Assembly (NCBI GenBank): GCA_020638905.1
Contig: JACKHP010000002.1
Location: 258,910-322,909, forward strand
Source of the DNA: Planctomycetota bacterium
GTDB taxonomy: Bacteria > Planctomycetota > B15-G4
DNA: 64,000 nt
Direction: 5' to 3'
Shown here piece after piece: positions 299-18,493 of this stretch (its first letter is position 1; each line of letters starts with the position of its first letter). The notes under the pieces were generated by a model. It saw only the letters and a list, made by a program, of their open reading frames with translations, was not told the DNA's origin and made no database searches. A program made the position numbers and the translations under genes.

Positions 299-1780
299 CT
301 AACCGATGCGCGCGCGCCAGGCGACGAGCTGCGCGCGTACGTTCTCCGGCGCCGTCCCGCCGATCGCCCGGCGCGCGGCCACCGCGGCATCGGACGTGAG
401 CGCCGCGCGCACCGACGGGTCGAGCGCCGGGTGCGCCGCGCGCAGGACGTCGTCGGGCAGCGCCACGAGATCGACGCCCCGCGACTCGGCCTCGCGCACG
501 AGGCGTCCCGTGGCTTCGTGGGCCTCGCGGAACGAGACGCCACGCACCACGAGCCAGTCGGCGATCTCGGTCGCGAGCAGGTAGCCGGACGGGTCGTCGA
601 CCGCGGCGCGCATGGCCGCTGCGTCGAAGCGCACGTCGGCCAGCATCGCGTCGGTCACCGCGAGCATCTGGCGCAGCGTGTCGTACGCGTCGAACAGCGC
701 GGGTTTGTCCTCCTGCAGATCCTTGTGATACCCGAGCGGCAGCCCGCGCTGGAGCTCGAGCAGCGCGGCGAGCGCGCTCGAGACGCGCACCGCCTTGGCG
801 CGCAGCAGCTCGGCGCCGTCGGGGTTGCGCTTCTGCGGCATGATCGAGCTGCCTGTCGAGACCGCGTCCCCCAGGCGCGCGAAGCCGTACTCGCGGCCGC
901 ACCACAGCACGAGATCGGCGCCGAGGCGCGAGAGCGTCGTGGCGCAGCAGGCCATCGCGAACGCGAGCTCGCACGCGTCGCGGCGCGACGAGACCGCCTC
1001 GAGACTGTTGGGCGAGGGTGCCTCGAAGCCCAGCTCGCGCGCCGTCATCTCGCGGTCGATGGGGAACGTCGTGCCCGTCCCCGCGCCGGCGCCGAGCGGG
1101 CACTCGCGCGGCGTGCGGGCCAGTCCGCGCGCGTCGCTCTCGAGCATCTCGACCCACGCCAGGAGCGCGTGGCCGAGCAGCACCGGCTGGGCCCGCTGAA
1201 GGTGCGTGTAGTACGGCAGGATCGCCTCGCCGTCCCGCGCCACGAGGTCGAGCAGCCGACGCTGGACGACGCGCACGTCCTCGACGAGCTCGAGGGACGC
1301 GTCGCGCAGCCACAGCCGCAAGTCGGTGGCCACCTGGTCGTTGCGGCTGCGCGCGGCGTGCAGGCGCTTGCCGTCGTCGCCCACGAGCTCGGTGAGCCGG
1401 CGCTCGACCGCCATGTGGACGTCCTCGTCGCCGGGGTGCTCGACGAAGCGGCCTTCGGCGAACTCGCGCTCGACGAGACCGAGCCCGCGCAGGATGTTCG
1501 CCACCGCGTCCTTGGGCAGGATGCCCGTGGCGCCCAGCATGCGCACGTGCGCGCGGCTGCCGGCGATGTCCTGCCTCCACAGACGGCGGTCGAAGGGCAG
1601 CGAGCGGTTGATCGCGTCGAGCGCGGGATGCACGCCGCCGGCGAAACGTCCGCGCAGCAACGCGGCGCCGTCGACCGACGCGTCGCGCGCACCGTCCGCG
1701 CCGGACGTCGCCGACCGACCCTCGGTCGTCGCCGGAGCCGCGTCGTCGCGCTCGGGCTGGCTCTCGTGCCCGTCGCTCAC
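299..1780 (-). CDS. argH: argininosuccinate lyase
   Basis: C-terminal 493 aa of ORF 299..2842. Fumarate-lyase signature GSSIMPQKRNPD, plus SRNDQVATDLRLW and THLQRAQP. The GTG at 1780 overlaps the stop of the upstream gene (GTGA). Confidence 0.95.
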   Translation of the reverse strand: MSDGHESQPERDDAAPATTEGRSATSGADGARDASVDGAALLRGRFAGGVHPALDAINRSLPFDRRLWRQDIAGSRAHVRMLGATGILPKDAVANILRGLGLVEREFAEGRFVEHPGDEDVHMAVERRLTELVGDDGKRLHAARSRNDQVATDLRLWLRDASLELVEDVRVVQRRLLDLVARDGEAILPYYTHLQRAQPVLLGHALLAWVEMLESDARGLARTPRECPLGAGAGTGTTFPIDREMTARELGFEAPSPNSLEAVSSRRDACELAFAMACCATTLSRLGADLVLWCGREYGFARLGDAVSTGSSIMPQKRNPDGAELLRAKAVRVSSALAALLELQRGLPLGYHKDLQEDKPALFDAYDTLRQMLAVTDAMLADVRFDAAAMRAAVDDPSGYLLATEIADWLVVRGVSFREAHEATGRLVREAESRGVDLVALPDDVLRAAHPALDPSVRAALTSDAAVAARRAIGGTAPENVRAQLVAWRARIG

Positions 1781-2940
1781 GACGCGGCCTCCGCCTCGGT
1801 CTCGTCCGACGCCTCTCCGGCGCCCGCCGCCTCGTGCACGCCGAGGAACCTGCGCGCGATGGCGTCGTAGGCGGTCACCGCGGCGTGCACCTGCTCGAGC
1901 GCGACCCACTCGTCGGGCGCGTGGCTGGCCTTGCTCGTCCCCGGACCCATGACCACGCCGGGGACGTGCCGCAGGTGGAAGAGGTCGGACACGCCGCCGA
2001 ACCCGCGCACGCGGCCGGTCGGGCTCGCGGCCTTCGCCACGCGCACGATCTCGGCGTCGACGCCGATGCGCACCGGGTGGAAGCGCTCGCTGTGCACGAC
2101 GACCTCGCTCTCGCGGCCCACGACACCGCGCAGCAACGCCAGCATGCGCTCGTTGTCGCAATCGGGCGTGGGACGTCCGTCGAGCTGCACGACGCACTCG
2201 CCGGGCAGCACGTTCGGACGCGTGCCGCCGTGCACGACGGTGCACTGCAGCGTGGGAGGCCCGAGCAGCCGGTCGCTCACGCCCAGGTCGAGCGCGTGGA
2301 TCGCGAGCACGTCGCGCGCCGCGAGGTCGACCGCGTTGCGTCCCTCCCACGGACGGGAGGCGTGGGCGCTGCGGCCGTGGGCGATCACCGACGCGCGCAG
2401 CAGGCCGCGCTGCCCGGGACACACGTCGAGTTCGGTCGGCTCGCCGACGACGCACGCGTCGACCGGCGGCAGCTCGTGCACGCAGGCCTCGATGCCCTCG
2501 CCGCCGGTCTCCTCGTCGCACACGAGCGCCAGCACGAGGCGTCCCGCGAAGGCTGCGGGATCGAGCGCGGCGGCCACGGCGGCCATCGCGGCGACGCTCG
2601 ACTTGGCGTCGTTGCTGCCGCGACCGAGCAGGCGTCCGTCGGCGATCTCGCCCGACCACGGGTCGTGCGTCCAGCCGGGGCCCACGGGGACGACGTCGAT
2701 GTGCGAGCAGAGCAGCAGTCCCCGTCGCGTGACCCCCGGAGGGGCGGACGCGGTGCCGACGACCTCGGCCAACACGTTGCGTCCCGAGACGGTCACCGAC
2801 ACCCCGCGCCCGCGCAGCCAGTCGGCCAGCGCGTCGCGGCACGTCTCCTCTTCACCCGACACCGAGGGGATGCGCACCATCTCTTGCAGCAGCTCGACCG
2901 CCGCCTGCCCGGAGGGTGCGCGCGACGACCGAACGCTCAC
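1777..2940 (-). CDS. argE: M20-family deacetylase (acetylornithine / acetylcitrulline deacetylase type)
   Basis: Motifs LLLCSHIDVVPVGPGW, GRGSNDAKSS and LVCDEETGGEG are typical of ArgE/DapE M20 peptidases. Lies between argB and argH. GTGA overlaps at both ends (2937-2940, 1777-1780). Confidence 0.8.
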   Translation of the reverse strand: MSVRSSRAPSGQAAVELLQEMVRIPSVSGEEETCRDALADWLRGRGVSVTVSGRNVLAEVVGTASAPPGVTRRGLLLCSHIDVVPVGPGWTHDPWSGEIADGRLLGRGSNDAKSSVAAMAAVAAALDPAAFAGRLVLALVCDEETGGEGIEACVHELPPVDACVVGEPTELDVCPGQRGLLRASVIAHGRSAHASRPWEGRNAVDLAARDVLAIHALDLGVSDRLLGPPTLQCTVVHGGTRPNVLPGECVVQLDGRPTPDCDNERMLALLRGVVGRESEVVVHSERFHPVRIGVDAEIVRVAKAASPTGRVRGFGGVSDLFHLRHVPGVVMGPGTSKASHAPDEWVALEQVHAAVTAYDAIARRFLGVHEAAGAGEASDETEAEAAS

Positions 2941-3923
2941 GCGACACCTCCCTCGGTCTGCTTGCGCTCGCGCTTGCGGGCGGCACGGGCATCGACCTTG
3001 CCGCCCGGCGGCGTGACCTCCGCCGGACGCGGCGCGTGCGCCTCGGTCGCGATCAGCGTCCCGCAACCGTCGCGCGTGAACAGCTCGAGCAGCATCGCGC
3101 CCTCGTCGAGCCCCGAGAGGATGTGCGCGCGCTCGACCCCGCCTTCGACGGCCTCGACGAGCGACATGACCTTCGGCTTCATTCCGCCGCGCACGACGCC
3201 GCTGGCCACCGCCTCGCGCGCCTGCACCGGGCTCAGGTACGGGATGAGCGTCGCCGGGTCGTTCGCGTCGACGAGCACGCCGGGCACGGTCGTGAGCGAG
3301 ATGAGCTTGTACGCGCCGAGCGCGCGGGCCAGCACCGACGAGACCGTGTCGGCGTTGATGTTGAGCACGTTGCCCTCCTCGTCGCTGGCGAGCGACGAGA
3401 TGACCGGCACGTAGCCGTTGTCCATGAGCAGCGAGAGCAGCCGCGGCTGGACGTCGACGACGTCGCCCACGTGTCCGTAGTCGACCATCGAGACGCGCCC
3501 GCTCTCGGAGTCGCGCACCTCGACCGGACTGCGGCGCACCGCGTGGATCACGTCGCCGTCGACGCCCGAGAGGCCGACCGCCGCCACGCCCTGGGCGCGC
3601 AGGGCCGAGAGGATGTCGAGGTTCACCTGTCCCGCGAAGACCATCTTGGCCACGTCGAGGGTCTCGCGGTCGGTCACGCGGCGTCCCTCGACCATGACCG
3701 GCTGCAGGCCGAGGCGCTTCGACATCTCGGTCGCCTGCGGACCGCCGCCGTGCACGATGCAGGCGCGGATGCCGACGTGCACCACGAGCGAGAGGTCCTG
3801 TGCGAGCGAACGCAGCGCGTCGTCCTGGGCTGCCAGCTCGCCGCCCAGCTTGATCACCATCGTGCGTCCCTTGTGCCGGCGGATGTAGGGCAGCGCCTGC
3901 TTGAGGATGCTGATGTGCTTCAT
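2937..3923 (-). CDS. argB: acetylglutamate kinase (monofunctional, no GNAT domain)
   Basis: MKHISILKQALPYIRRH..MVIKLGGE, IVHGGGPQ and VLNINADT are amino-acid-kinase motifs. The ATG at 3923 shares a base with the upstream stop (TGATG). Confidence 0.93.
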   Translation of the reverse strand: MKHISILKQALPYIRRHKGRTMVIKLGGELAAQDDALRSLAQDLSLVVHVGIRACIVHGGGPQATEMSKRLGLQPVMVEGRRVTDRETLDVAKMVFAGQVNLDILSALRAQGVAAVGLSGVDGDVIHAVRRSPVEVRDSESGRVSMVDYGHVGDVVDVQPRLLSLLMDNGYVPVISSLASDEEGNVLNINADTVSSVLARALGAYKLISLTTVPGVLVDANDPATLIPYLSPVQAREAVASGVVRGGMKPKVMSLVEAVEGGVERAHILSGLDEGAMLLELFTRDGCGTLIATEAHAPRPAEVTPPGGKVDARAARKRERKQTEGGVA

Positions 3924-4972
3924 CACGAGGGCTCCTGCGAGGCGGGGTCGACGCCGGCCGCGCGACAGAGTGTCGCACGCTGGACGTCGAGGCGCGCGGC
4001 TGCCTGCTCGAACACGAGCGAGCGCGGGCCGTCGAGCAACGCGTCCTCGACGACCACGTTGCGGCGCACCGGCAGGCAGTGCATGAAGAACGCGCGGTCG
4101 CCGCGCTGCAGGTCGCGTTCGCGCACCATCCACCCGGGACGCCGCACCGCGGCGGACGCCACCTCGGCAGGCTCGCCGTAGTGTCGCGCGCTGCCCCAGG
4201 CCTTGGCGTACACGACGCGCGCGCCCTCGAAGGCGGCCTCGCGGTCGTGCGTGACCGTGAACGTCCCGCCGCGCCGGGCGGCCGAGGCGCGGGCCGCGTC
4301 GAGCACGGCGTCGGGCAGTTCGAAGCCCTCGGGATGGGCCAGCACGACGTCGTGTCCCTCGCGCGCGAAGGCCTGCACGGCGGCCGCCGGCACGGCCATC
4401 GGCAGCGGACGCACGTGCGGCGCCCAGGTCACGACGACCTTGCAGCGCTCGCCGACCTGGCGACGCAACGTGAGCGCGTCGGCCAACGCCTGGTGCGGAT
4501 GGTCGAGCGCCGACTCGAGGTTCAGCAACGGGACGCCGGACGCGCGCGCCGCCGCCGCGAGCACCGGCTCGGCCAGGTCGTCGGCCGCGTCGCGCAGTCC
4601 CGCGAAGGCGCGCAGTCCGATGCCGTCGACCATGCGCGCGAGCACGCCCACGGCCTCGCGCAGGTGCTCGGCCGCGGCGCCGTCCATGACGACGCCGTCG
4701 CGGTGTTCGAGGGTCCAGCTGCCCTCGCCGGGCTGCAGCGGGACGGCGTGGGCACCGAGGTCGTGGCAGGCCACCTCGAACGCGGTGCGCGTGCGCAGCG
4801 ACGGCGCGAGGAAGAGCATCGCGAAGCGCAGGCCGGCCAGCAGCGGACGCCGTCCCCGGTCGCCCGCGAGCAACTCGGACGCCGCGAGCAGCGCGTCCCA
4901 GGCGGCGTCGTCGAGGTCGCGCTGGACGAGCAGCGAGCGCGCGGCGAGCGCCGCGTCGGTCGCCACCGTCAC
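3923..4972 (-). CDS. argF': N-acetylornithine (or N-succinylornithine) carbamoyltransferase-type transcarbamylase
   Basis: Motifs APSLRTRTAFE, LDHPHQALAD, VVYAKAWGS (in place of the OTCase DxxxSMG block) and HCLPVRRNV. As I remember it, this aligns along its length with Xanthomonas AOTCase. The start is uncertain. GTG 4972 is the first in-frame start that does not overlap argD. Confidence 0.8.
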   Translation of the reverse strand: MTVATDAALAARSLLVQRDLDDAAWDALLAASELLAGDRGRRPLLAGLRFAMLFLAPSLRTRTAFEVACHDLGAHAVPLQPGEGSWTLEHRDGVVMDGAAAEHLREAVGVLARMVDGIGLRAFAGLRDAADDLAEPVLAAAARASGVPLLNLESALDHPHQALADALTLRRQVGERCKVVVTWAPHVRPLPMAVPAAAVQAFAREGHDVVLAHPEGFELPDAVLDAARASAARRGGTFTVTHDREAAFEGARVVYAKAWGSARHYGEPAEVASAAVRRPGWMVRERDLQRGDRAFFMHCLPVRRNVVVEDALLDGPRSLVFEQAAARLDVQRATLCRAAGVDPASQEPS

Positions 4973-5121: not shown

Positions 5122-6402
5122 TCACGTGAGGATCGCCCGCAACGCGTCGACGAACAGGCCCGCCTCCTCGCGCTCCAGCACGAGCGGCGGCAGCAGGCGC
5201 ATCTGCGCCTTCGGCTTCGACGAGCCCACGAGGATGCCGGCCTCGCGCAACGCCGCGATCACCGGCTTCGCGTCGCGGTCGAGGTCGACGCCCAGCAGCA
5301 GGCCCCGTCCATGGACGGCCCGCACGCCCGGCACGCGCAGCAGCTCGTCGGTCAGCCACGCGCCCTGCGCGGCGGCGTTCGCGCACAGCCCTTCGTCGCG
5401 CAGGATGTCGGCGGTCGCGGCCAACGCCGCGCACGCGAGCGGTCCCCCGCCGAAGGTCGTGCCTTGTTCACCGCTGCCGATGCCGGCCGCGACGTCCTCG
5501 CGCACGAAGACCACGCCGGCGGGCACGCCGCCCGCGGCACCCTTGGCCGCCGTGATGAGGTCGGGGACGACACCCACGCCCTCGCCGAAGAACGGCGTCC
5601 CGGTGCGTCCGAAGCCGGTCTGCACCTCGTCGAACACGAGCAGCGCTCCCCGCGCGCCGCACGACTCGCGCAGGCGCTCGAAGTACCCCGGCGCCGCCAC
5701 CTGCACCCCGCCCATCGACGGGATCGGCTCGAGCAGCACCGCGGCCACGTCGTCACCGAGCGCGGCGTCGAGGGCCTCGACGTCGCCGTAGGGCACCCAC
5801 GTCGTGTCGTCGGTCGGCACCGGCCACGACGGGTCGAGGTATCCGGGCAGTCCGGTCACGGCGAGGCTGCCCAGCGTGCGTCCGTGGAAGCCCTCGCGCA
5901 TGGCGACGATCCGGCGACGGCCGGTGTGACGACGCGCGATCTTGAGCGCGGTCTCGTTCGCCTCGCTGCCGCTGTTGCAGAAGAAGACGCGCCGCAGTCC
6001 CTCGGGCGCGAGCGAGGCGACCTTCTCGGCAGCCTCGGCGCGTACGTCGCTGTAGACCGCGTTGCTGTAGAACAGCAGGCGCGCGGCCTGGTCCTGCACG
6101 GCCTGCACGAGGCGCGGATGACAGTGCCCCACCGACGCGACGCAGTGTCCTCCGTAGAGGTCGAGGAAGCGCCGGCCCTGCACGTCGGTGACCCAGCAGC
6201 CACGCCCCTCGACGAGCACCAGCGGGATCTTGGAGTAGGTCGCGAGCTGCCAGTGGTCCTCGCGCTGCATGAGCTCGTCGGCCAGGGCGGCGAGCGCCTC
6301 GGGCCGGGAATCGCGCGACGCGCCCGTCGCGTGTGACGCCCGCGCGCGATCCTGCGACGAATCGCGACCCGACGACGGACGATGCGATGCCGATGCGTCC
6401 AT
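5122..6402 (-). CDS. argD: acetylornithine aminotransferase (class III PLP aminotransferase)
   Basis: Motifs NSGSEANETALK, LVFDEVQTGFGRTG and LITAAKG (PLP lysine). The ATG at 6402 is preceded by GGAGGA. Confidence 0.9.
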   Translation of the reverse strand: MDASASHRPSSGRDSSQDRARASHATGASRDSRPEALAALADELMQREDHWQLATYSKIPLVLVEGRGCWVTDVQGRRFLDLYGGHCVASVGHCHPRLVQAVQDQAARLLFYSNAVYSDVRAEAAEKVASLAPEGLRRVFFCNSGSEANETALKIARRHTGRRRIVAMREGFHGRTLGSLAVTGLPGYLDPSWPVPTDDTTWVPYGDVEALDAALGDDVAAVLLEPIPSMGGVQVAAPGYFERLRESCGARGALLVFDEVQTGFGRTGTPFFGEGVGVVPDLITAAKGAAGGVPAGVVFVREDVAAGIGSGEQGTTFGGGPLACAALAATADILRDEGLCANAAAQGAWLTDELLRVPGVRAVHGRGLLLGVDLDRDAKPVIAALREAGILVGSSKPKAQMRLLPPLVLEREEAGLFVDALRAILT

Positions 6403-6416
6403 GGGGACGTCCTCCG

Positions 6417-7445
6417 TCACGGCCCGAGGGCCGCGTGGCGCAGTCCGGTCGTCTCGTCGAGACCGAACATGAGGTTCGCGTTCTGCACGGCCGTGCCGGC
6501 CATGCCCTTGACGAGGTTGTCGATCGTCACGAAGACGCACACCGTGCCCGTCCCCGCGACGGCGGCGACGTCGGCGAAGTTGCTGCCGGCCACGGCGCGC
6601 ACCTCGGGCGTGCCGGGCACGAGCCGCACGAAGACCTCGTCCTCGTAGGTCGAGCGCAGCACCTGCACGGCCTCGCGCTCGCGTCCGCGCTTGACCGGCA
6701 CGAAGGCGGTCACCGCGATGCCGCGCGAGAAGGGCGCCGAGTGCGGGACGAAGTCGACGCCGTCGAAGGCCGGCGCCACGCCGCGCAGGTGCTGTTCGAT
6801 CTCGGGCACGTGCTGGTGGTCGAGCGGCTTGTAGGCCTTGAAGCTCGCGAAGCGCTCGGGGTGGTGCGTGCCCTTGCCGGGAGCGCTGCCCGAGCCCGAA
6901 GACCCGGTCACGCTGGCCACCGCGGGACGTCCCGTGACCAGGCCCTCGCGCACGAGCGGCCAGAGCGCGAGCAACGTCGCGCTGGCATGGCAGCCGGGGT
7001 TCGCCACGAGCCGCGCGCCGCGCACGGCGCCGCGCGCGCCACACTCGGGCAGCCCGTAGACGGCCTTCTCGAGCGCCTCGGGATGAGCGTGCGCCTTGCC
7101 GTAGTGACGCGCGTACTCGTCGGCGTCGCGCAGGCGGTGGTCGCCCGAGAGGTCGATCACGCGCACGTCGGGATGACGCTCGAGCAACGGCCCGATCTCG
7201 GACGCGGCCACGCCGTGCGGCGTCGCGAACACGAGCAGGTCGTGCGTCTCCGCCAGGTCGTCGGCCGAGGCGTCGACGAACGACAGCTCGGTGAGCCCGC
7301 GCAGACCGGGATGCACGTCGACCACCGCGCCCTTGCTCGTGCGGCTCGTGACCGTCGCGATCTCGAGCTCGGGATGCAGCAGCGAGAGCCGCAGCAGCTC
7401 CATGCCGCCGTAGCCCGTGCCGCCGACGAGGGCGGTGCGGATCAT
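6417..7445 (-). CDS. argC: N-acetyl-gamma-glutamyl-phosphate reductase
   Basis: MIRTALVGGTGYGGMELLRL forms a Rossmann N-terminus, and the catalytic motif ANPGCHASA is present. The ATG at 7445 overlaps the stop of the upstream gene (ATGA). Confidence 0.93.
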   Translation of the reverse strand: MIRTALVGGTGYGGMELLRLSLLHPELEIATVTSRTSKGAVVDVHPGLRGLTELSFVDASADDLAETHDLLVFATPHGVAASEIGPLLERHPDVRVIDLSGDHRLRDADEYARHYGKAHAHPEALEKAVYGLPECGARGAVRGARLVANPGCHASATLLALWPLVREGLVTGRPAVASVTGSSGSGSAPGKGTHHPERFASFKAYKPLDHQHVPEIEQHLRGVAPAFDGVDFVPHSAPFSRGIAVTAFVPVKRGREREAVQVLRSTYEDEVFVRLVPGTPEVRAVAGSNFADVAAVAGTGTVCVFVTIDNLVKGMAGTAVQNANLMFGLDETTGLRHAALGP

Positions 7446-8602
7446 GCACCGCCCTCCGACGTCATCCCGCCGGACGCATCGCGTGCGCCACCCGTCGCCG
7501 CGTCGCGGGCGGTCGTCGGCGAGCCTTCGTCGCCGCGCAGGCGCGCGGTCGAGTCGGCTTCGCGCGCGGCCAGCACGCGTCCGAAGGTGGCGTCTTCGAC
7601 GAGGTCGGTGAGCAGCACGCCGTCGGTGCGCGCGTTCGCGGCCGCGATGCCGAGTTCGTCGCGCAGGTACGCCATGCCCACCGCGTTGTCGGTGGCCGGC
7701 CCGGCCACGACGTCGACCGTGAGCCCGCGTCGCGTGAACCACTCGACGCCGCCCCAGGCCGCCACGAGGTCGGTGGCGCACAGCACGTGCGACGCCACGA
7801 GGGCGGCGAATCCCTCGTCCTCGAGGATCGACGCCACGCCGTAGCTGCCGATGATGCCGTCGCCCATCTCGGCGATGATCACGTCGAGGTCGGGTGCCGC
7901 CTGGGCCGCCGCGCGCAGCACGTGCCGCGCCACGGGCGCCACGTCGGTCATGCCGGCGGTGCTGGGCAGGCCGACGTCCATGAAGCTGAGCACGATCTGG
8001 GCGCCGTGGTCGGCCATGTTGAGCGTGTCGCGCTGGGCGGCGACGCCGGTGAGCTTCACGCCGCCGACCGCGTAGCCGCGCGCGGTGAGGTGCGTCACGA
8101 GCTCGCACGCCGCCGACGTCTTGCCGGCGTTCATGCAGGTGCCCGAGATCGCGATCACCGGCGGCACCTCGACGTCGTCCGGGGGGACGGGCAGCGCGAA
8201 GTCGGCGATGTTCAGGCCGCGTCCGTTGCGCGTGGCCATGCCGAGCACCTCGACGCGCAGCGGGTGGCCGACGTCCTTGTTCTCGGAGACGGCCTCGCCC
8301 AGCACGCCGCCCAGGTTGAGGATGTGCAGCACGTCGCCGGCCTTGATCGACGTCGGGACGCGCCCGACGAAGCCGCGCAGGGCGTCGCGCCGTCCGAGGG
8401 CGCCCACGAGCACGTCGCCCTGGCTCACGTGCGCCATGCGTCCCGTGGTGAGCTCGATCACGTCGTAGACGCGCTTCTCCTCGAGCGCGCGCACCACGAG
8501 CACCTGGCCGCTCTTCGCCTCGACGAGGCGCGAGACCTCGACCTCGGGACCGAGTCCCACGCGCGAGACGACGCTGCCGACCTTGTGCGGACGGATCTTC
8601 AT
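7442..8602 (-). CDS. uncharacterised P-loop protein (GTxxxxGKT, BioD/DUF1611-like) embedded in the arg operon
   Basis: 386 codons, coupled at both ends (TGATG with argG at 8602, ATGA with argC at 7442-7445). Contains PVIAISGTCMNAGKTSAACELVTHLTARGYAVGGVKLTG, then IIAEMGDGIIGSYG. The N-terminal ~150 aa are beta-rich and I do not recognise them. Confidence 0.8.
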   Translation of the reverse strand: MKIRPHKVGSVVSRVGLGPEVEVSRLVEAKSGQVLVVRALEEKRVYDVIELTTGRMAHVSQGDVLVGALGRRDALRGFVGRVPTSIKAGDVLHILNLGGVLGEAVSENKDVGHPLRVEVLGMATRNGRGLNIADFALPVPPDDVEVPPVIAISGTCMNAGKTSAACELVTHLTARGYAVGGVKLTGVAAQRDTLNMADHGAQIVLSFMDVGLPSTAGMTDVAPVARHVLRAAAQAAPDLDVIIAEMGDGIIGSYGVASILEDEGFAALVASHVLCATDLVAAWGGVEWFTRRGLTVDVVAGPATDNAVGMAYLRDELGIAAANARTDGVLLTDLVEDATFGRVLAAREADSTARLRGDEGSPTTARDAATGGARDASGGMTSEGGA

Positions 8603-9954
8603 CAGGACTCTCCCTGCATCGAGGCGGAGGAGGACGGCGGGTTGCCCGGCGCGCGGCCGGACGGAGACGAGCGCGACGCGGAGGCGTCGGCGGAGGCGGC
8701 CGACGTCGCGCCGCCCTCGGCGGGCGAGCCCGCACCGGCGGACGCGGCGCGCTCGCGGGCCGCGAGGTCGCGACGTCCCGCGAGCACGGCCGGCATGGCG
8801 TGGATCTTGCCGAAGCCCGCGGCCTCGGCGCCGGTCCAGGCGGAGGCGCTCTCGCCGTAGACGGCGGTGGCGGCGTCCATGAGCGAGTGCGGAGAGCGCA
8901 CGCCGACGACCTCGGCCGTGCCGGCCGCGAGCCGCACGCGCGCTTCGCCCGCCACGAGCCGGTTGCTCGACTCGAGCAGCGCCTCGAGGTCGCGCAGCAC
9001 GGGATCGTGGTAGCAGCCTTCGTGCAGCAGCATGCCCCAGAAGTCGCCGGCCTGGCGCATCCAGTGCGCCTGCCACTTGGTGAGCACGAGCTTCGACAGC
9101 TCGCGGTGCGCCTTGACGAGCACGAGCGGACCGGGTGCCTCGAACACGACGCGTCCCTTGACGCCCAGGATCGTGTCGCCGAGGTGGATGCCGCGTCCGA
9201 AGCCGTGGGCTCCGGCGCGCGCATTGAGCGCGGCGACGAGTTCGGGGCCCGCGAGGCGCTCGCCGTCCAGCGAGACGGCGCGTCCCTGCTCGAAGCCGAG
9301 CACGAGTTCCTCGGGCGGGAGCGCGTTCGTCTCGGGGTTGGCCGTGGCCGCGTAGACAGACTCGGGCGGGACCGTCCAAGGGTCGTGGGTCTCGCGTCCG
9401 CCGATGGTCGTGCCGAACAGTCCCGCGTTGAGCGAGTAGCCGACGGTCGCGTCGGACACCGGGACTCCGCGCGCGACGAGCCAGTCGCGCTCGGCCTGGC
9501 GCGAGAGGTGCAGCTCGCGCACCGGCGCGAGGATCTGCAGGTCGGGCGCCAGCGCCGCGAGCGCCCCGTCGAAGCGGATCTGGTCGTTGCCGGCGCCGGT
9601 CGAGCCGTGGGCGATGGCCGTCGCGTGCACCTCGCGCGCCACGCGCACGACCGCCTCGGCCTGGGCCGTGCGCTCGGCCGCCACCGACACGGGATACACG
9701 CCGCCGCGCAGCACGTCGCCCATCACGAGGTACGACACGAAGCGGTCCCACACGACCTGACGCGCGTCGACGGTGTAGTGCTCGCTCGCGCCGCAGGCCA
9801 GCGCCCGCGCGCGGATGCCGTCGAGCCCGGCGGCGTCGAAGCCGCCCGTGTCGACGCACACGGTGACCACCTCGTGGCCGAGTTCGTGCACGAGCCAGCC
9901 GGCGCAGAACGAGGTGTCGAGGCCGCCCGAGAAGGCGAGGACCACGGTGCTCAT
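8602..9954 (-). CDS. argG: argininosuccinate synthase (with low-complexity Ala/Ser-rich C-terminal tail)
   Basis: MSTVVLAFSGGLDTS (PP-loop), AHGSTGAGNDQIRF and SLNAGLFG. ATG at 9954. The longer ORF start at 10020 falls in the AT-rich promoter patch. Confidence 0.93.
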   Translation of the reverse strand: MSTVVLAFSGGLDTSFCAGWLVHELGHEVVTVCVDTGGFDAAGLDGIRARALACGASEHYTVDARQVVWDRFVSYLVMGDVLRGGVYPVSVAAERTAQAEAVVRVAREVHATAIAHGSTGAGNDQIRFDGALAALAPDLQILAPVRELHLSRQAERDWLVARGVPVSDATVGYSLNAGLFGTTIGGRETHDPWTVPPESVYAATANPETNALPPEELVLGFEQGRAVSLDGERLAGPELVAALNARAGAHGFGRGIHLGDTILGVKGRVVFEAPGPLVLVKAHRELSKLVLTKWQAHWMRQAGDFWGMLLHEGCYHDPVLRDLEALLESSNRLVAGEARVRLAAGTAEVVGVRSPHSLMDAATAVYGESASAWTGAEAAGFGKIHAMPAVLAGRRDLAARERAASAGAGSPAEGGATSAASADASASRSSPSGRAPGNPPSSSASMQGES

Positions 9955-9984
9955 GGAGGAGGTCCGGCGGGGAGGCGATCTGCA

Positions 9985-10003
9985 TATGCGCATTATGCGC
10001 ATA
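9985..10003. promoter_or_regulatory. perfect 19-bp palindrome TATGCGCATTATGCGCATA, candidate operator of the arg operon
   Basis: Two tandem self-complementary ATGCGCAT octamers, 31-49 nt upstream of the argG ATG. They sit inside the only AT-rich stretch (about 9981-10030) between the arg operon and the next gene. The architecture resembles an ARG box but the sequence is different. Confidence 0.45.
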
Positions 10004-10339
10004 GCAAGTAAGTTATTCACATATACGACCGCGGGCGGCCGGGCCGCAAGAGCAATCCCGTGAAGTTCCGGCGGCGGGTGCGGGATGCGGGCGGCCCGCG
10101 CGACGCCGGGCGGGGGACGCGGAGCGGGTCGTCCGCCGCTCGGCGTCTTGCGCGACGGTCACCGGCGGTCGGGCGGGATCGCGATGCACGGCAGACCCAC
10201 GATACGTCCGCCGCGCACGGCGGACGGCGTCCGATTCGAACGAGCCGCGAGCACGACACGCCCGATCGGCTTCGAGATCCGGATCGGCTTCGGCGCGCGG
10301 CGGCTCGGCGGATCCGCGTCGTCCCACCCCGAACGAAAG

Positions 10340-13451: not shown

Positions 13452-13892
13452 TCAGGTCGCCCCGCCCACTCTGTAGAGCAGCACGTACACGAGCACGCCG
13501 GTGACCGAGACGTACAGCCACACGGGCAGCGTGATGCGCGCGACCTGCTTGTGGCGCGCGAGATCGCCGCGCAGCGCGGCGACGAGCAGCCAGACGATGA
13601 ACGGCACCATGAGTCCGGCCAGCACGACGTGCGGGATCAGGACCGCGAAGTAGAGCGTGCGCAGCCAGCCCTCGCCCTGGAACTTCACCGACTCGGTCGT
13701 GGCGTGGTACTGCAGGTACGAGACCAGGAAGACCGTCGAAACCGCGAACGCCGCGAGCATGAGACGCTTGTGCAGCGCCTCGTTGCGTCCGCCGCGGGCG
13801 ATCGGAGGCCAACCCCTGATCGCGCACCAACCCGCGGCGAGCAGCAGCGCCGCCGTGCCGTTCAGCAGCGCGTGCAGCGCGGGACGACTCAC
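13452..13892 (-). CDS. DUF420-family membrane protein (CtaM-like, cytochrome oxidase associated)
   Basis: 146-aa product with four hydrophobic helices (..LHALLNGTAALLLAAGW.., ..HKRLMLAAFAVSTVFLVSYL.., ..LIPHVVLAG..). GTGA overlap with the upstream SCO1 stop at 13889-13892. Confidence 0.7.
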   Translation of the reverse strand: MSRPALHALLNGTAALLLAAGWCAIRGWPPIARGGRNEALHKRLMLAAFAVSTVFLVSYLQYHATTESVKFQGEGWLRTLYFAVLIPHVVLAGLMVPFIVWLLVAALRGDLARHKQVARITLPVWLYVSVTGVLVYVLLYRVGGAT

Positions 13893-14779
13893 TGCGCCGC
13901 GAGCGCCGCGAGCTTCTGCGCGTCGTCCTTCAGCTCGCGCAGCTTGGCCTGGTCGTTGTACGCGTAGTATCCGCGCACGCGGCCCTCGGCGTCGACGAGC
14001 GCGAAGCGTCCGCTGTGGAACATGGGCGGCATGCCGGCCACCTCGGTGCCGCGGGCGTTGACCGGCAGCTTGAAGCCGCTGTCGGCCAGGCTCTGGATGC
14101 CGTCGGACGTCCCGGTGAGCAGCCGCCACTGTTCCTTGCCGGTGCCGTACCGCTTGCGGTAGCCGGCGAGCACGCCGGGTTCGTCGTACCCGGGGTCGAC
14201 GGTGATCGAGAGCAGCTTGGCGGCCAGTCCCTCGCGCGCGAGCTGCGCGAAGATCGACGACATCTCGGGACACGGACCCGAGCAGCGCGTGAAGATGAAG
14301 TCGACCACCCACACCTGGCCGCGCATGTCGGCCCGCGTGAACGCCTTGCCGTCGTCGTCCACGAGCTCGAAGTCGGGCAGCAGACCGTGGACGGGCAGTC
14401 CCGTGCCGTCGTCGACCTGCGCCGGACCTTCGTCGGCGCCGAAGAACGCCGCCAGCCGGGCGACCTCGGCGTCGTCGTCGTCTTCGTCCGCCTCGTCGTC
14501 GTCGTCCCGGGACGCGGCCTTCTGGGCGGCCGCGCCGTGCTCGCCGTCGGCCAGGATCGTGCCCGACGCCGCATCGTCGAGGTGCTCCTCGGGCAGCTCG
14601 CAGCACGCGGCGGGCGCGGCCGCGTCGTCGGCCCTGGCCTCGGAGGGCTCGGCCTTCGACGTGCAGCCGGCGAGCAGCGCCGCGAGCGCGAGCGCACCCG
14701 CGACGAGCGCCGGACGCGCGCCCGCGTCGGGACGCGCCGCGGGGCGCGTGGGACCAGTCGTGCGGGAGCGCGTGCTCAT
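13889..14779 (-). CDS. SCO1/SenC-family copper chaperone lipoprotein
   Basis: Lipobox LLAGC. Acidic linker DDDDEADEDDDD. Thioredoxin-fold block VWVVDFIFTRCSGPCPEM and LSITVDPGYDEP. ATGA overlap with the upstream gene at 14776-14779. Confidence 0.88.
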   Translation of the reverse strand: MSTRSRTTGPTRPAARPDAGARPALVAGALALAALLAGCTSKAEPSEARADDAAAPAACCELPEEHLDDAASGTILADGEHGAAAQKAASRDDDDEADEDDDDAEVARLAAFFGADEGPAQVDDGTGLPVHGLLPDFELVDDDGKAFTRADMRGQVWVVDFIFTRCSGPCPEMSSIFAQLAREGLAAKLLSITVDPGYDEPGVLAGYRKRYGTGKEQWRLLTGTSDGIQSLADSGFKLPVNARGTEVAGMPPMFHSGRFALVDAEGRVRGYYAYNDQAKLRELKDDAQKLAALAAQ

Positions 14780-16404
14780 CGTCCGTCCTCCTCGTGGGTT
14801 GCGGTCTCGGGATGTGCGCCGGACGCATCGCGTGCGGCGGCCAGCGCGCGCACGTCGTCGCGCAGCTCGGCGAGCTGCAGCGCGTCGGCCGGCTCGTACG
14901 TGCCGCGCACGCGACCCTCGCCGTCGACGAGCGCGAAGCGTCCGCTGTGGAAGAGCTGCGGCAGGCCCTCGACCTCGGGCGCCTCGCCCCCCACCGGCAG
15001 GCGGAAGCCGTCGCGCGCCAGGGCCGCGATGGCCTCGGGATCGCCGGTGAGCAGGCGCCACGCGTCGTCGTCGGCCAGCGCGCCGCCCTGCCGGGCGCGG
15101 TACGCGGCGAGCGTCGCGGCGTCGTCGTGCGCGGCGTCGACGGTGATCGAGAGCAGGCGTGCGGGCAGTCCCTCGCCCGCGAGTGCGGCGTAGGACTTCG
15201 CCATGTCGACGCACTGGCCGGCGCAGCGCGTGTAGATGAAGTCGACCAGCCACACGTCGCCCAGCATGTCGCCGCGCGTGAAGGGACGTCCGTCGTCGGC
15301 GGTCAGCGCGAACTCGGGCAGCTCGCCGTACGACGGCAGCCCGCTGCCGTCGGCGGGCTGCGGCAGGACGTGGTGCACCGCGTCCGCGAGCGGCGCCGCG
15401 CGTCGGGACGGCGTGGCGCACGCGGCACACGCCGCGTCGGTGTCGGCGTGCAGCGCGCCGGACGTCGTCGCGCCGTCCGCGCAGTGCTCGCACGCGACGC
15501 CCTCGTCGACGTCCGCGACGGCCGCCGCGGCGGGACGGCAGGCCACGTCGACGACGAGTGACGCCAGCACCAGCGGCAGGTAGAGCACCGACGCCACCAC
15601 CACGCGTCGCGCGCCGCGCCGGTCGGGTTGCCGGAAGAATCCCAGCGCGGAGACGAGGAACAGCAGCCCGAGGACGAGCGCCACGAAGCCGTACAGCGCG
15701 CGCGCCTGTCCCGCCAGCACGGGCAGCGCCGAGACGAGCACCACCGACATGACCTGCATCGGCATCGTCCAGCGCAGCATGCGGTCTTCGGGGTCGTCGC
15801 CGGACAGCATGCGCAGGCCGCCCCTGCTGTACTCGTCGCGGTACATCGACGCGATGGCGAAGAAGTGCGGGAGCTGCCAGAGGAAGATCAGGCCGAAGGC
15901 CGTCCAGGCCAGCAGTCCGGGGCCGGCGAGGGGCGCCGCGGCGGCCGCGCCCACCACGAGCGGCAGCGCCCCGGGGATCGCCCCGACCCACGTGTTCGTG
16001 GACGTGCGCCGCTTGAGCGGCGTGTAGATCGCGAGGTACGTGAGCGACGCGCAGGCCAGCAGCAGCGCGGCCATCCAGCCGGCGCCGGCGATCGCGACGG
16101 CCAGGCCCGCGACCAGCGCGGTCAGTCCGAAGCCGACGACCTGGGCCGACGTGAGCGCGCCGGTCACCAGCGGACGGTTCTTCGTGCGCTCCATGCGCGC
16201 GTCGGTGTCGCGCTCGAGCCAGTGGTTGAGCGCGGTGCCGGCGGCCGAGACGAGCAGCGTGCCGAGCAGCGCCCAGGGCAGCGCGCTCCAGTCGGCGGGA
16301 CGCTCGAGCGCGTAGCCCGCCGCGCACGTGACGAGCACGAGCAGCGCGATGCGCGGACGCAGCAGCGCGGCCAGTCCCTCGCGGTCGAGCGGCGCGGCGG
16401 CCAC
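14776..16404 (-). CDS. ctaB: protohaem IX farnesyltransferase (haem O synthase) fused to a C-terminal SCO1/SenC domain
   Basis: The N-terminal two thirds contain LNHWLERDTDARMERTKNRPL (UbiA-type) and multiple TM helices. A Cys-rich linker (CEHC, CAAC) follows, then VWLVDFIYTRCAGQCVDM and LSITVDAAHDD. The GTG at 16404 starts 2 nt after the ctaA stop. An alternative ATG lies at 16464. Confidence 0.85.
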   Translation of the reverse strand: MAAAPLDREGLAALLRPRIALLVLVTCAAGYALERPADWSALPWALLGTLLVSAAGTALNHWLERDTDARMERTKNRPLVTGALTSAQVVGFGLTALVAGLAVAIAGAGWMAALLLACASLTYLAIYTPLKRRTSTNTWVGAIPGALPLVVGAAAAAPLAGPGLLAWTAFGLIFLWQLPHFFAIASMYRDEYSRGGLRMLSGDDPEDRMLRWTMPMQVMSVVLVSALPVLAGQARALYGFVALVLGLLFLVSALGFFRQPDRRGARRVVVASVLYLPLVLASLVVDVACRPAAAAVADVDEGVACEHCADGATTSGALHADTDAACAACATPSRRAAPLADAVHHVLPQPADGSGLPSYGELPEFALTADDGRPFTRGDMLGDVWLVDFIYTRCAGQCVDMAKSYAALAGEGLPARLLSITVDAAHDDAATLAAYRARQGGALADDDAWRLLTGDPEAIAALARDGFRLPVGGEAPEVEGLPQLFHSGRFALVDGEGRVRGTYEPADALQLAELRDDVRALAAARDASGAHPETATHEEDGR

Positions 16405-16405
16405 G

Positions 16406-17368
16406 TCAGGCCGCCTCGCCCCACGGCGCGGGCGCCGGCTCGGGAACGCCCGGCCGTTCGTCACGCGGGACGCGCGCGCAGCGCAGCGAGAACAGGAACG
16501 CGGTGGCGAGCAGGGCGGCGCCGTTGGCCACGTGCAGCGACGTCACGATCGGCTGCTTGCCCGTCCACACGACGGACGCGCCGAGCACGCCCTGGACGAA
16601 CACGAGCCCCGCCAGCCACGACGCGTGGTCGAGCAGGTGCGGCAGCCGGCGCGGCACGATCAGCGCCGCGCGCCACACGAGCGCGAAGACGACGATCGCG
16701 AACGTGCGGTGCGCCATGTGGATCCACACCAGCCGGTCGACGTGCTCGGGAAGCAACGACCCGTCGGCCGACACGGGGAAGAACGGGACGGCCAGGCCGG
16801 CCTCGTTGTGTCGCATCCACGCGCCGAGCAGGAGCTGCACGAAGATCGCGGCGACCGCGACGAGCGCGGCCCGCAAGGCGCGGGTTCGCCCGGCGCGCAG
16901 CTCCGCGAAGCGCGCCGGCGCGTCGGCGAACTCGCGCGAGCAGGCGTACGCCAGCGCGGTCACCGTGCACAGGAAGACCTGCGCCAGCGTGCCGTGCGAG
17001 GCCGAGAGCCACGGCGGCAGCTTGTAGCGCACCGTGAGACCGCCCAGCAGGCCCTGCAGGCAGACGACGCCGACGGCCGTCCACGCGAGCCGACGCACCC
17101 ACGCCCGGGACTCGGTGCGTTGCGTCCACACGGCGAGCAGCACCGTGAGGAGGCCGATCGTGGCCGCGATCGTGCGGTGTCCGTGCTCGTAGAACACGCC
17201 GCCGACCATGTTCGGCCAGAGCTTGCCGTACGAGAGCGGCCAGTCGGGGACGGACAGTCCCGCCTCGCGGCTCTTGACCTCGGCGCCCGCGAACACGAGC
17301 AGCACCGTGAGCGCGGCGAGGGCCACGCCCGATCGACGTCGCGCGACGGACGGCGTGCTGCTCCTCAT
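16406..17368 (-). CDS. ctaA: haem A synthase (COX15/CtaA family)
   Basis: 319-aa polytopic membrane protein with paired His motifs FYEHGHRTIA and HMAHRTFA. It is adjacent to ctaB. Confidence 0.88.
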   Translation of the reverse strand: MRSSTPSVARRRSGVALAALTVLLVFAGAEVKSREAGLSVPDWPLSYGKLWPNMVGGVFYEHGHRTIAATIGLLTVLLAVWTQRTESRAWVRRLAWTAVGVVCLQGLLGGLTVRYKLPPWLSASHGTLAQVFLCTVTALAYACSREFADAPARFAELRAGRTRALRAALVAVAAIFVQLLLGAWMRHNEAGLAVPFFPVSADGSLLPEHVDRLVWIHMAHRTFAIVVFALVWRAALIVPRRLPHLLDHASWLAGLVFVQGVLGASVVWTGKQPIVTSLHVANGAALLATAFLFSLRCARVPRDERPGVPEPAPAPWGEAA

Positions 17369-18221: not shown

Positions 18222-18493
18222 GGGAGACCTCGCGGAGGACGGAAGGAGGGCCGCGCGACTTCGCGCGGAGCCTGTCTCCGGGTGCACACTTTTCGTCCCG
18301 GGGACGGTTGCGTCGGGTAGCCTACGAAAACCTGCGGACCGAGGGGAAGGGCATGACGGTCCGGTGAGGGGCCGGGCGCCGGGGGCCACCAGGCGCGGGC
18401 GGCCAATCCGCCCAGGATCCCGACCTCCAGGTGACGTGCGGCTCCGTCCGACGGATGATGCAGCCGCTCCTGGCCGCTCGAAGGAGGTCGCCC

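Follow-up and report, generated by a model that had tools for sequence, protein, structure and literature searches.

Which enzyme forms the first, N-acylated intermediate of arginine biosynthesis is the question raised by an operon in a Planctomycetota genome (assembly GCA_020638905.1, contig JACKHP010000002.1, positions 258,910 to 322,909; this whole stretch of 64,000 nucleotides is referred to as the window). As the genes of the operon account for all other steps of the pathway, the N-acylation of glutamate was the sole step left without an enzyme, and between argG and argC the operon harbours an uncharacterised gene, here called X, which encodes a protein of 386 residues. An earlier examination of the letters alone, hereafter the sequence-only reading, had put X forward as a candidate for the missing first step. 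This candidacy was strengthened by the pathway gap, the translational coupling, the linkage to arg genes in other genomes and an X-ArgB fusion, while the acetyl group that was assumed and the basis in the DUF1611 family found no support. Given the pathway gap, the linkage, the fusion, a reported exclusion of ArgA and an enzyme-like conservation, X probably forms the N-acylglutamate that feeds ArgB.

The operon lies on the minus strand in the order argG-X-argC-argD-argF'-argB-argE-argH, and the neighbours of X were assigned with NCBIfam models.

8602 to 9954, minus strand: argG, argininosuccinate synthase (TIGR00032, 295 bits, above the cut-off); its stop overlaps the ATG of X.
7442 to 8602, minus strand: gene X, an uncharacterised two-domain protein of 386 amino acids, recognised by its open reading frame (ORF), translation, G+C content at third codon positions (GC3) and homologues.
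6417 to 7445, minus strand: argC (TIGR01850, 342 bits); its ATG overlaps the stop of X.
5122 to 6420, minus strand: argD, N-acylornithine aminotransferase, starting at GTG 6420 (a 4-nt overlap with argC) or at ATG 6402.
3923 to 4972, minus strand: argF', N-acylornithine carbamoyltransferase (NF003384, the N-acetylornithine-carbamoyltransferase model, 344 bits against a cut-off of 288).
2937 to 3923, minus strand: argB, N-acylglutamate kinase of 328 amino acids (TIGR00761, 234 bits; ArgA models match the kinase part only).
1777 to 2940, minus strand: an M20 deacylase of the ArgE/DapE type, presumed to be the N-acylcitrulline deacylase (TIGR01910, 176 bits, below the cut-off of 217.6 and thus a family-level assignment).
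299 to 1780, minus strand: argH, argininosuccinate lyase (TIGR00838, 475 bits).

The ATG of X (8602-8600) and the TGA stop of argG (8604-8602) have the A at 8602 in common (TGATG). At five of the other six operon junctions an overlap of 1 or 4 nt is a possible reading, and only argD and argF' are separated by a gap; at one of the five the TGA stop of X (7444-7442) and the ATG of argC (7445-7443) overlap as ATGA. When the coordinates were re-read from the sequence, the 386-codon ORF and both junction overlaps agreed with those given in the sequence-only reading, and the peptides PVIAISGTCMNAGKTSAACELVTHLTARGYAVGGVKLTG, IIAEMGDGIIGSYG and HVLCATD that it had singled out were each present in the translation of X. 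The reading frame of X, in a genome of 72% G+C, has a GC3 of 0.94 against 0.50 at second positions, which is a strong coding signature. Because of this signature and of more than 3,700 database homologues (E≤1e-3, word-indexed protein search), X was taken to be a real gene and not a chance ORF.

The ArgB of the window consists of a kinase domain only, and no GNAT domain was found in it with NCBIfam models or by tblastn with E. coli ArgA. Neither ArgJ nor a GNAT protein was detected in the operon or among the approximately 38 other confident genes of the window, and tblastn with the GNAT half of E. coli ArgA matched neither the window nor any of 80 related loci of approximately 20 kb. These results agree with the description in the sequence-only reading of an operon with a plain 328-residue ArgB and without ArgA, ArgJ or GNAT. 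The route through an acylornithine carbamoyltransferase has no ornithine intermediate, and a linear route of this kind therefore requires stoichiometric de novo synthesis of N-acylglutamate.

The linkage of X to arg genes, which the sequence-only reading had left as a question, was found to hold in other genomes. In a sample of 80 loci from GTDB species representatives (approximately 20 kb each), argG immediately preceded the X homologue in 72, and the other genes present were argC (57 loci), argD (53), argB (45), argF' (42), argH (36) and argE (32); many of the loci without a given arg gene end at contig ends. An Acidobacteriota metagenome-assembled genome (MAG) has the arrangement argR-argG-X-argC...argD-argF-argB...argH, a Chloroflexota MAG argG-X-argF-argH-carA-carB, an archaeal MAG argG-argH-X-argC-argD-argF, and Gemmatimonadota X-argC-argD-argB-argG-argH. 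A role of X as the source of carbamoyl phosphate was also considered and was rejected, as carA and carB share the operon with X in the Chloroflexota locus.

A fusion between X and its proposed consumer was found in metagenomic data. In the protein P0164, X is joined to an amino-acid-kinase domain for which argB is the best family, and by exact-sequence look-up its ORF was internal and intact on four contigs of the Joint Genome Institute (JGI) metagenomes, which differ by 0-1 nucleotides.

7848 to 9881 of locus L094 (also on L095, L096 and L097): the X-ArgB fusion, monocistronic and divergent from an arginase-family gene.

An in-frame upstream extension of P0164 restores the complete N-domain and gives a protein of 673 residues. 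This fusion is the strongest new argument for X making the substrate of ArgB. It is supportive and not decisive because it comes from a single population. A metagenome scan for further X-ArgB fusions gave none.

ArgF' carries a signature that bears on the nature of the acyl group. In the window ArgF', the residue that corresponds to Glu92 of the N-acetylornithine carbamoyltransferase of Xanthomonas campestris is Ala (alignment to 3l02, 3l05, 3l06 and 3kzc), and the best alignment of this ArgF' was to the E92A mutant of the Xanthomonas enzyme. Among 43 ArgF' proteins adjoining X homologues, position 92 was occupied by Ala in 34, Gln in 3, Ser in 2, and Pro, Val, Ile and Thr in one each; Glu was present in none of them. 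According to the account of Shi et al. (2007) given in bioRxiv 10.1101/2024.10.14.618325, N-succinylornithine becomes the substrate of the enzyme when Glu92 is exchanged for A, P, S or V. As position 92 is Ala in the window and is never Glu among the 43 proteins, the pathway of the window is most likely the succinyl variant, with N-succinylated intermediates, and the acetyl group of the sequence-only reading should probably be replaced by a succinyl group.

The idea of a starter enzyme of this type is not new, because a preprint had already proposed such a protein. In Appendix 2 of GapMind 2026 (bioRxiv 10.1101/2024.10.14.618325) an alternative N-succinylglutamate synthase with a P-loop was predicted in arg clusters, the candidate being the family of Steroidobacter ACG33_RS14135 (A0A127FCT3). 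There, homologues of the candidate and of ArgA were reported never to co-occur, the candidate was weakly similar by Foldseek to the D-glutamate-acetylating enzyme DgcN (7XRJ, E = 1.4e-7), and position 92 of the neighbouring ArgF' was A, P, S or V in 90% of cases, or 97% with I and T included, with two Gln. The "apparently undescribed" arg gene of the sequence-only reading thus has a precedent of matching description. The position-92 counts obtained here (A/P/S/V in 38 of 43, I/T in 2, Q in 3) reproduce the GapMind distribution, the rare Gln included, and for this reason X and ACG33_RS14135 very probably belong to the same family, a relationship drawn from matching signatures; ACG33_RS14135 itself did not come up among the listed matches of the protein searches or in the 80 loci kept from the GTDB scan. 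The addition made here is independent support and a sharper mechanism.

The homologues of X form a large family with no name. X matched no Pfam or NCBIfam family above threshold; weak, sub-threshold P-loop matches were obtained with Pfam MobB (18.9 bits) and with the TIGR models mobB and bioD, which were far under their cut-offs. The best 120 homologues (65-100% identity) were all annotated as "hypothetical" and none had a Pfam domain. An exhaustive search of 50%-identity representatives with X gave 1,684 clusters at E≤1e-3, 1,143 at E≤1e-10 and 263 at E≤1e-30. The family spans seven phyla or more; its named sources are Planctomycetota, Chloroflexota, Acidobacteriota (Blastocatellia), Gemmatimonadota, Wallbacteria, Cloacimonadota, Limnocylindrales and one archaeal MAG. 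A divergent member from a JGI metagenome (P0263, 519 amino acids) has a response-regulator receiver domain at its N-terminus, which suggests phosphorylation-controlled activity in some lineages.

Structure prediction divided X into two domains and a tail.

8165 to 8602, minus strand: N-terminal all-beta domain of X, residues 1-146 (AlphaFold model of the domain, predicted local distance difference test [pLDDT] score 93.8).
7568 to 8164, minus strand: P-loop domain of X, of the SIMIBI class and dethiobiotin-synthetase-like, residues 147-345 (Foldseek, PDB profile searches, hhalign).
7445 to 7567, minus strand: C-terminal tail of X, residues 346-386, non-conserved and of low complexity (absent from most homologues in the alignment; pLDDT below 50 for residues 361-386).

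The usual length of the homologues is approximately 346 residues, compared with 386 in the window protein. In the AlphaFold model of full-length X (pLDDT 79.5) the N-terminal part is all-beta and the C-terminal part alpha/beta. With this model only the C-terminal domain found matches in the PDB by Foldseek, to SRP54, FtsY and HypB at E of approximately 1e-6 and a template modelling (TM) score of approximately 0.35; of 187 matches at E≤1e-3 the best 50 were inspected, all with E≤5.2e-5 and most of them SRP54, FtsY or HypB. Sequence profile searches of the PDB with two alignments returned FtsY, dethiobiotin synthetase (DTBS), MobB and SRP54, of which FtsY and DTBS, both at 6e-5, were the best sequence-level matches. 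These searches and the hhalign comparison with BioD described below support the P-loop of SIMIBI/BioD type recognised in the sequence-only reading. Its unrecognised beta-rich N-domain of about 150 residues likewise reappeared as the all-beta domain of the AlphaFold models: modelled alone, with a deeper alignment than the full-length protein, this domain gave no Foldseek match to the PDB better than E = 0.64, and residues 1-146 of X and its relatives gave no match in a Pfam scan. Its near-invariant residues are G32, E50, R72, P83 and G99, and the most conserved polar ones are R72 (61 R and 2 K among the 63 relatives introduced below) and E50 (58 of 63). It is presumed to be a substrate-binding domain.

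The P-loop domain retains the catalytic residues of the BioD type.

8117 to 8143, minus strand: Walker A motif of X, G154-T-C-M-N-A-G-K161-T162, aligning with G8 to K15-T16 of BioD.
8054 to 8056, minus strand: K183, the equivalent of K37 of dethiobiotin synthetase by hhalign residue mapping.
8029 to 8027, minus strand: D192, part of the DTBS-type catalytic set, aligned by hhalign to D54 of BioD.
7870 to 7868, minus strand: E245, part of the DTBS-type catalytic set, aligned by hhalign to E115 of BioD.

The X profile was matched to E. coli BioD by hhalign with 82.5% probability over 102 columns, and the paired residues were K161/T162 with K15/T16, K183 with K37, D192 with D54 and E245 with E115. 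In BioD, K15 is the lysine of the P-loop, K37 a second lysine by which the phosphorylated carbamate is stabilised, and D54 and E115 are the two Mg ligands. Conservation was counted in 63 diverse members of the X family (24-52% identical to X): G160, K161 and K183 were kept in all 63, T162 in 61, E245 in 62, and D192 in 60 with Glu in the other three. The set K161/T162-K183-D192-E245 was also retained in the X-ArgB fusion and in plasmid-borne relatives. The family as a whole, with best hits 65-73% identical to X and 263 clusters at E<1e-30, shows an enzyme-like conservation, and the residue pattern is as expected for Mg-dependent phosphoryl transfer from a nucleoside triphosphate (NTP) to an oxyanion. 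The hhalign match itself indicates relatedness at the superfamily level only: the bioD model TIGR00347 scored 13.4 bits on X against a cut-off of 83.3, no curated BioD or CobQ model gave a significant match, and the CbiA and AAA_26 models were sub-threshold on the relatives of X.

These features suggest a mechanism in which X would N-acylate L-glutamate, most probably to N-succinyl-L-glutamate. The C-terminal, dethiobiotin-synthetase-like domain would bind Mg-ATP and, with the K161/T162-K183-D192-E245 set, would transfer a phosphate to a free carboxylate (that of succinate), so that an acyl phosphate (succinyl phosphate) is formed. The all-beta N-domain would hold glutamate through R72 and E50, and the alpha-amino group of the glutamate would attack the acyl phosphate to give the amide, ADP and Pi. 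The product would then pass in turn to ArgB, ArgC, ArgD, the succinyl-type ArgF', the M20 deacylase, ArgG and ArgH. The assignment of X as an ATP-dependent succinate:L-glutamate ligase is tentative: the analysis establishes the gene with its coupling, the pathway gap, the conserved linkage, the fusion, the class of fold and the conserved residues, and we infer which reaction X catalyses, its acyl donor and its dependence on ATP.

The same pathway gap, linkage, ArgB fusion and ArgF' signature would apply equally to an acyl-CoA-dependent transferase, which would make N-succinyl-L-glutamate with a P-loop that binds the nucleotide part of succinyl-CoA, by analogy with DgcN. Known ArgA enzymes are users of acyl-CoA, and a glutamate acyltransferase related to DgcN was the reading both of the sequence-only examination and of GapMind 2026, in the latter from the Foldseek match to 7XRJ given above. 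DgcN (Yu et al.) is said to be a D-glutamate N-acetyltransferase that uses acetyl-CoA. Its family model, PF07755, was judged by the gathering score of 25 bits over most of its 201 profile positions. X did not match PF07755 even at E≤10, and the model was sub-threshold in 40 of the 63 relatives (best E = 2.3e-4), as were MobB in 50 and CbiA in 45. In the 16 proteins scanned singly, which were relatives and plasmid homologues, the PF07755 alignments covered profile positions of approximately 3-68 only, with the strand and helix of Walker A, and reached neither the EGQGS nor the LCH block. Plasmid relatives of X from cultured bacteria, found by tblastn, were labelled "DUF1611 domain-containing protein" by the annotation pipeline PGAP (one of them "dethiobiotin synthase"), and they score 16-22 bits on PF07755 against the cut-off of 25. 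The sub-threshold matches and these labels count in favour of the transferase. No DUF1611 entry was returned at E≤10 in the PDB sequence profile searches with X, and 7XRJ was absent from the best 50 of the 187 Foldseek matches, which were obtained with the full-length model of pLDDT 79.5. DUF1611_N was not found by Pfam in residues 1-146, and the all-beta model of this region had no match to the solved DUF1611 N-domains. The kinship of X with DUF1611/DgcN proposed in the sequence-only reading was thus not borne out, and the link between X and DgcN appears to be at the superfamily level only. The strict conservation of the Lys37 equivalent and of both Mg ligands is not obviously required by an acyl-CoA enzyme. 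Overall, the transferase is considered somewhat unlikely, and the ATP-dependent route is slightly favoured because the DTBS set is strictly conserved and X, in the comparisons made, resembled DgcN no more than it did SIMIBI NTPases in general.

Several points weigh against N-acylglutamate formation by X, and in particular against its formation with ATP. The X family is known from sequences, genomic context and models, its kinship with ACG33_RS14135 is drawn from signatures, and the absence of argA and argJ applies to the 64-kb window. To our knowledge there is no known ATP-dependent succinate:glutamate ligase, and DgcN, the one glutamate N-acyltransferase of P-loop fold that we know to have been characterised, uses acetyl-CoA. 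The top Foldseek matches (SRP54, FtsY and HypB) are GTPases, and an NTPase with a regulatory or non-catalytic function could likewise have a P-loop fold and keep its NTPase residues intact. Some relatives of X occur outside arg contexts, and in approximately 20 Planctomycetota loci argG and X form a pair on their own, which could reflect an ArgG-related role instead.

The last of these points are shared by an explanation in which X is an accessory NTPase, for instance a factor that supplies metal to the M20 deacylase or ArgG or helps to assemble them, or a regulatory subunit that senses nucleotides, and an unlinked enzyme would catalyse the first step. The closest structures are indeed SIMIBI GTPases, among them the nickel chaperone HypB, and the isolated argG-X pairs and the receiver domain of one relative are compatible with such a role. 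X itself as a GTPase was rejected because no NKxD/TKxD motif, the guanine-specificity signature, follows the P-loop domain strands, and a function as a dedicated chaperone of the M20 deacylase was rejected because some clusters with X, such as those of Gemmatimonadota and Chloroflexota, have no M20 gene. K183 is a residue characteristic of DTBS-like ligases and not of chaperone GTPases, the fusion partner is ArgB, the would-be consumer of the product of X, and a mutual exclusion with ArgA was reported by GapMind (bioRxiv 10.1101/2024.10.14.618325). An accessory function is therefore judged improbable, and N-acylation of glutamate by X remains the preferred interpretation.

The DTBS-like residue set would suit any ligation of a carboxylate to an amine, and position 92 of ArgF' tells only that the acyl group is not acetyl-like. 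X might thus catalyse another ATP-dependent step, such as an ArgJ-like recycling or re-acylation, or add another protecting group (gamma-glutamyl or another dicarboxylate). A wider use of substrates is suggested by two plasmid relatives with 27-29% identity to X and a retained catalytic set, from Priestia megaterium (NZ_CP085446.1, 7899-8960 of locus L089) and Bacillus paranthracis (NZ_CP116206.1, 7863-8891 of L090). Their neighbours encode a phosphoenolpyruvate mutase, a two-subunit thiamine-pyrophosphate decarboxylase, ATP-grasp ligases and a homologue of ornithine/aspartate carbamoyltransferases, together with an M20 peptidase in Priestia, and these clusters look like the phosphonate natural-product type, re-using a logic of acylation, carbamoylation and deacylation. 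Every remaining step of the window pathway has its dedicated operon enzyme, and the switch by E92A/S/P/V was, in the account of Shi et al. (2007) cited in bioRxiv 10.1101/2024.10.14.618325, shown specifically for succinylornithine. Another step is the least probable of these explanations. A further X-like subgroup was seen on Sulfitobacter and Paracoccus plasmids (L088, L091 and L092), between an alpha/beta hydrolase and an ABC transporter and with no arg context; its members have Gln in place of E50, carry inconsistent PGAP names and miss the Pfam thresholds.

A candidate regulatory site was noticed upstream of the operon.

9985 to 10003, no strand assigned: candidate operator (context 9980-10029), in which the 10-bp palindrome TATGCGCATA occurs twice back to back, with 1 mismatch in one of the copies, in an AT-rich patch approximately 30 nt upstream of the argG ATG.

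The palindrome TATGCGCATA had no more than these 2 matches in 64 kb, where 0.13 were expected, and paired TATG[CT]GCATA-like palindromes were also present upstream of argG in loci L001-L005, L009-L011, L022, L030 and L035. The pair is a candidate operator of the arg operon, unlike the classical TGAAT-type ARG box; an Acidobacteriota ArgR used as query detected no argR in the 64-kb window. In all seven checked loci with argG-X away from other arg genes (L006, L007, L017, L020, L021, L029 and L036, all Planctomycetota), a divergent tRNA-Arg(ACG) was located approximately 200 nt upstream of argG, for example at 8501-8577 of L007. The C-termini of ArgG (approximately residues 400-450), X (346-386), ArgB (approximately 295-328) and ArgE are non-conserved tails rich in Ala, Gly, Arg and Ser, which are missing from homologues of other genomes and in which the overlapping stop/start junctions fall.

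Elsewhere in the window, an ORF at 14776-16407 (minus strand) encodes an unusual fusion of a UbiA-family prenyltransferase (heme O synthase-like) with a C-terminal SCO1/SenC domain. With SCO1/SenC at 13889-14707, DUF420 at 13452-13877 and COX15/CtaA at 16406-17326, it makes up a compact cytochrome-oxidase assembly cluster. A protein of 1,553 amino acids encoded at 18413-23074 (plus strand) has two sulfatase-modifying formylglycine-generating-enzyme (FGE-sulfatase, SUMF1-like) domains and long stretches without a Pfam match, and a sulfatase gene is present at 53348-54871.

Planctomycetota, Blastocatellia, Chloroflexia and Gemmatimonadota are abundant, mostly uncultured lineages apparently without the first arginine enzyme, and because it appears to be missing, genome-based metabolic models call them arginine auxotrophs or leave a gap. 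Were X the first enzyme, this gap would be closed for thousands of genomes, and an unannotated family of 263 or more clusters (50% identity) would be given a function. Were it also an ATP-dependent ligase, it would represent a new enzymatic way of protecting an amino group during the synthesis of amino acids. In its widest form the proposal is that X is a CoA-independent, Mg-ATP-dependent ligase of succinate (or another dicarboxylate) and L-glutamate, built from a DTBS-like P-loop domain and a beta domain not seen before. It would be a fourth, non-homologous start of arginine synthesis beside GNAT-type ArgA, ArgJ and LysW/ArgX, in Planctomycetota, Acidobacteriota, Chloroflexota, Gemmatimonadota and others, with paralogues serving as N-acylating protecting-group enzymes in phosphonate-type clusters. 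Taken with all these parts, the proposal is doubtful.

Among known systems, X is most similar in description to the ACG33_RS14135 family, whose members are likewise hypothetical proteins found nearly always within clusters of argB, C, D, F', E, G and H (and argR), remote P-loop relatives of DgcN and a proposed replacement of ArgA. The GapMind proposal is a computational case that assumes a DgcN-like acyl-CoA transferase, and it does not include the ArgB fusion, the DTBS-type set or the unmatched N-domain. DgcN (PF07755 with DUF1611_N; 7XRJ) has in common with X a C-terminal P-loop domain of SIMIBI type with a GTxxxxGK[TS] Walker A motif, a two-domain build of approximately 340 residues and glutamate as the acceptor, known for DgcN and proposed for X. 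It differs in that the substrate of X would be L- and not D-glutamate and its acyl group probably succinyl.

With BioD, CobB, CobQ and the synthetase domain of CTP synthase, X shares the type of Walker A motif and the equivalents of K15/T16, K37, D54 and E115. In ligases of the DTBS type a carboxylate or carbamate is activated with ATP and attacked by an amine, and by analogy such chemistry would supply the missing N-acylation. Only approximately 100 residues can be aligned with BioD, however, and X has an additional beta domain of 146 residues and would act on other substrates. A CoA-independent start with ATP-dependent amide protection of the glutamate alpha-amino group through an acyl phosphate has a precedent in ArgX/LysX. 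These enzymes have an ATP-grasp fold instead of a P-loop and need the carrier LysW, for which there is no gene here, whereas the ArgF' of the window operon acts on a small-molecule acylornithine. In its logic, an ATP-dependent ligase in place of a transferase would also have functional precedents in PurT versus PurN and in formyl-tetrahydrofolate synthetase. X would share its predicted product and its position in the pathway with ArgA (kinase-like with GNAT, GNAT-only, or the GNAT-type N-succinylglutamate synthase of Bacteroides) and with ArgJ. It has neither a GNAT nor an ArgJ fold, is unrelated to them in sequence and structure, and would be a non-homologous replacement, and the joining of X to a kinase in P0164 parallels the union of kinase and acyltransferase parts seen in classical ArgA and in bifunctional ArgA/B.

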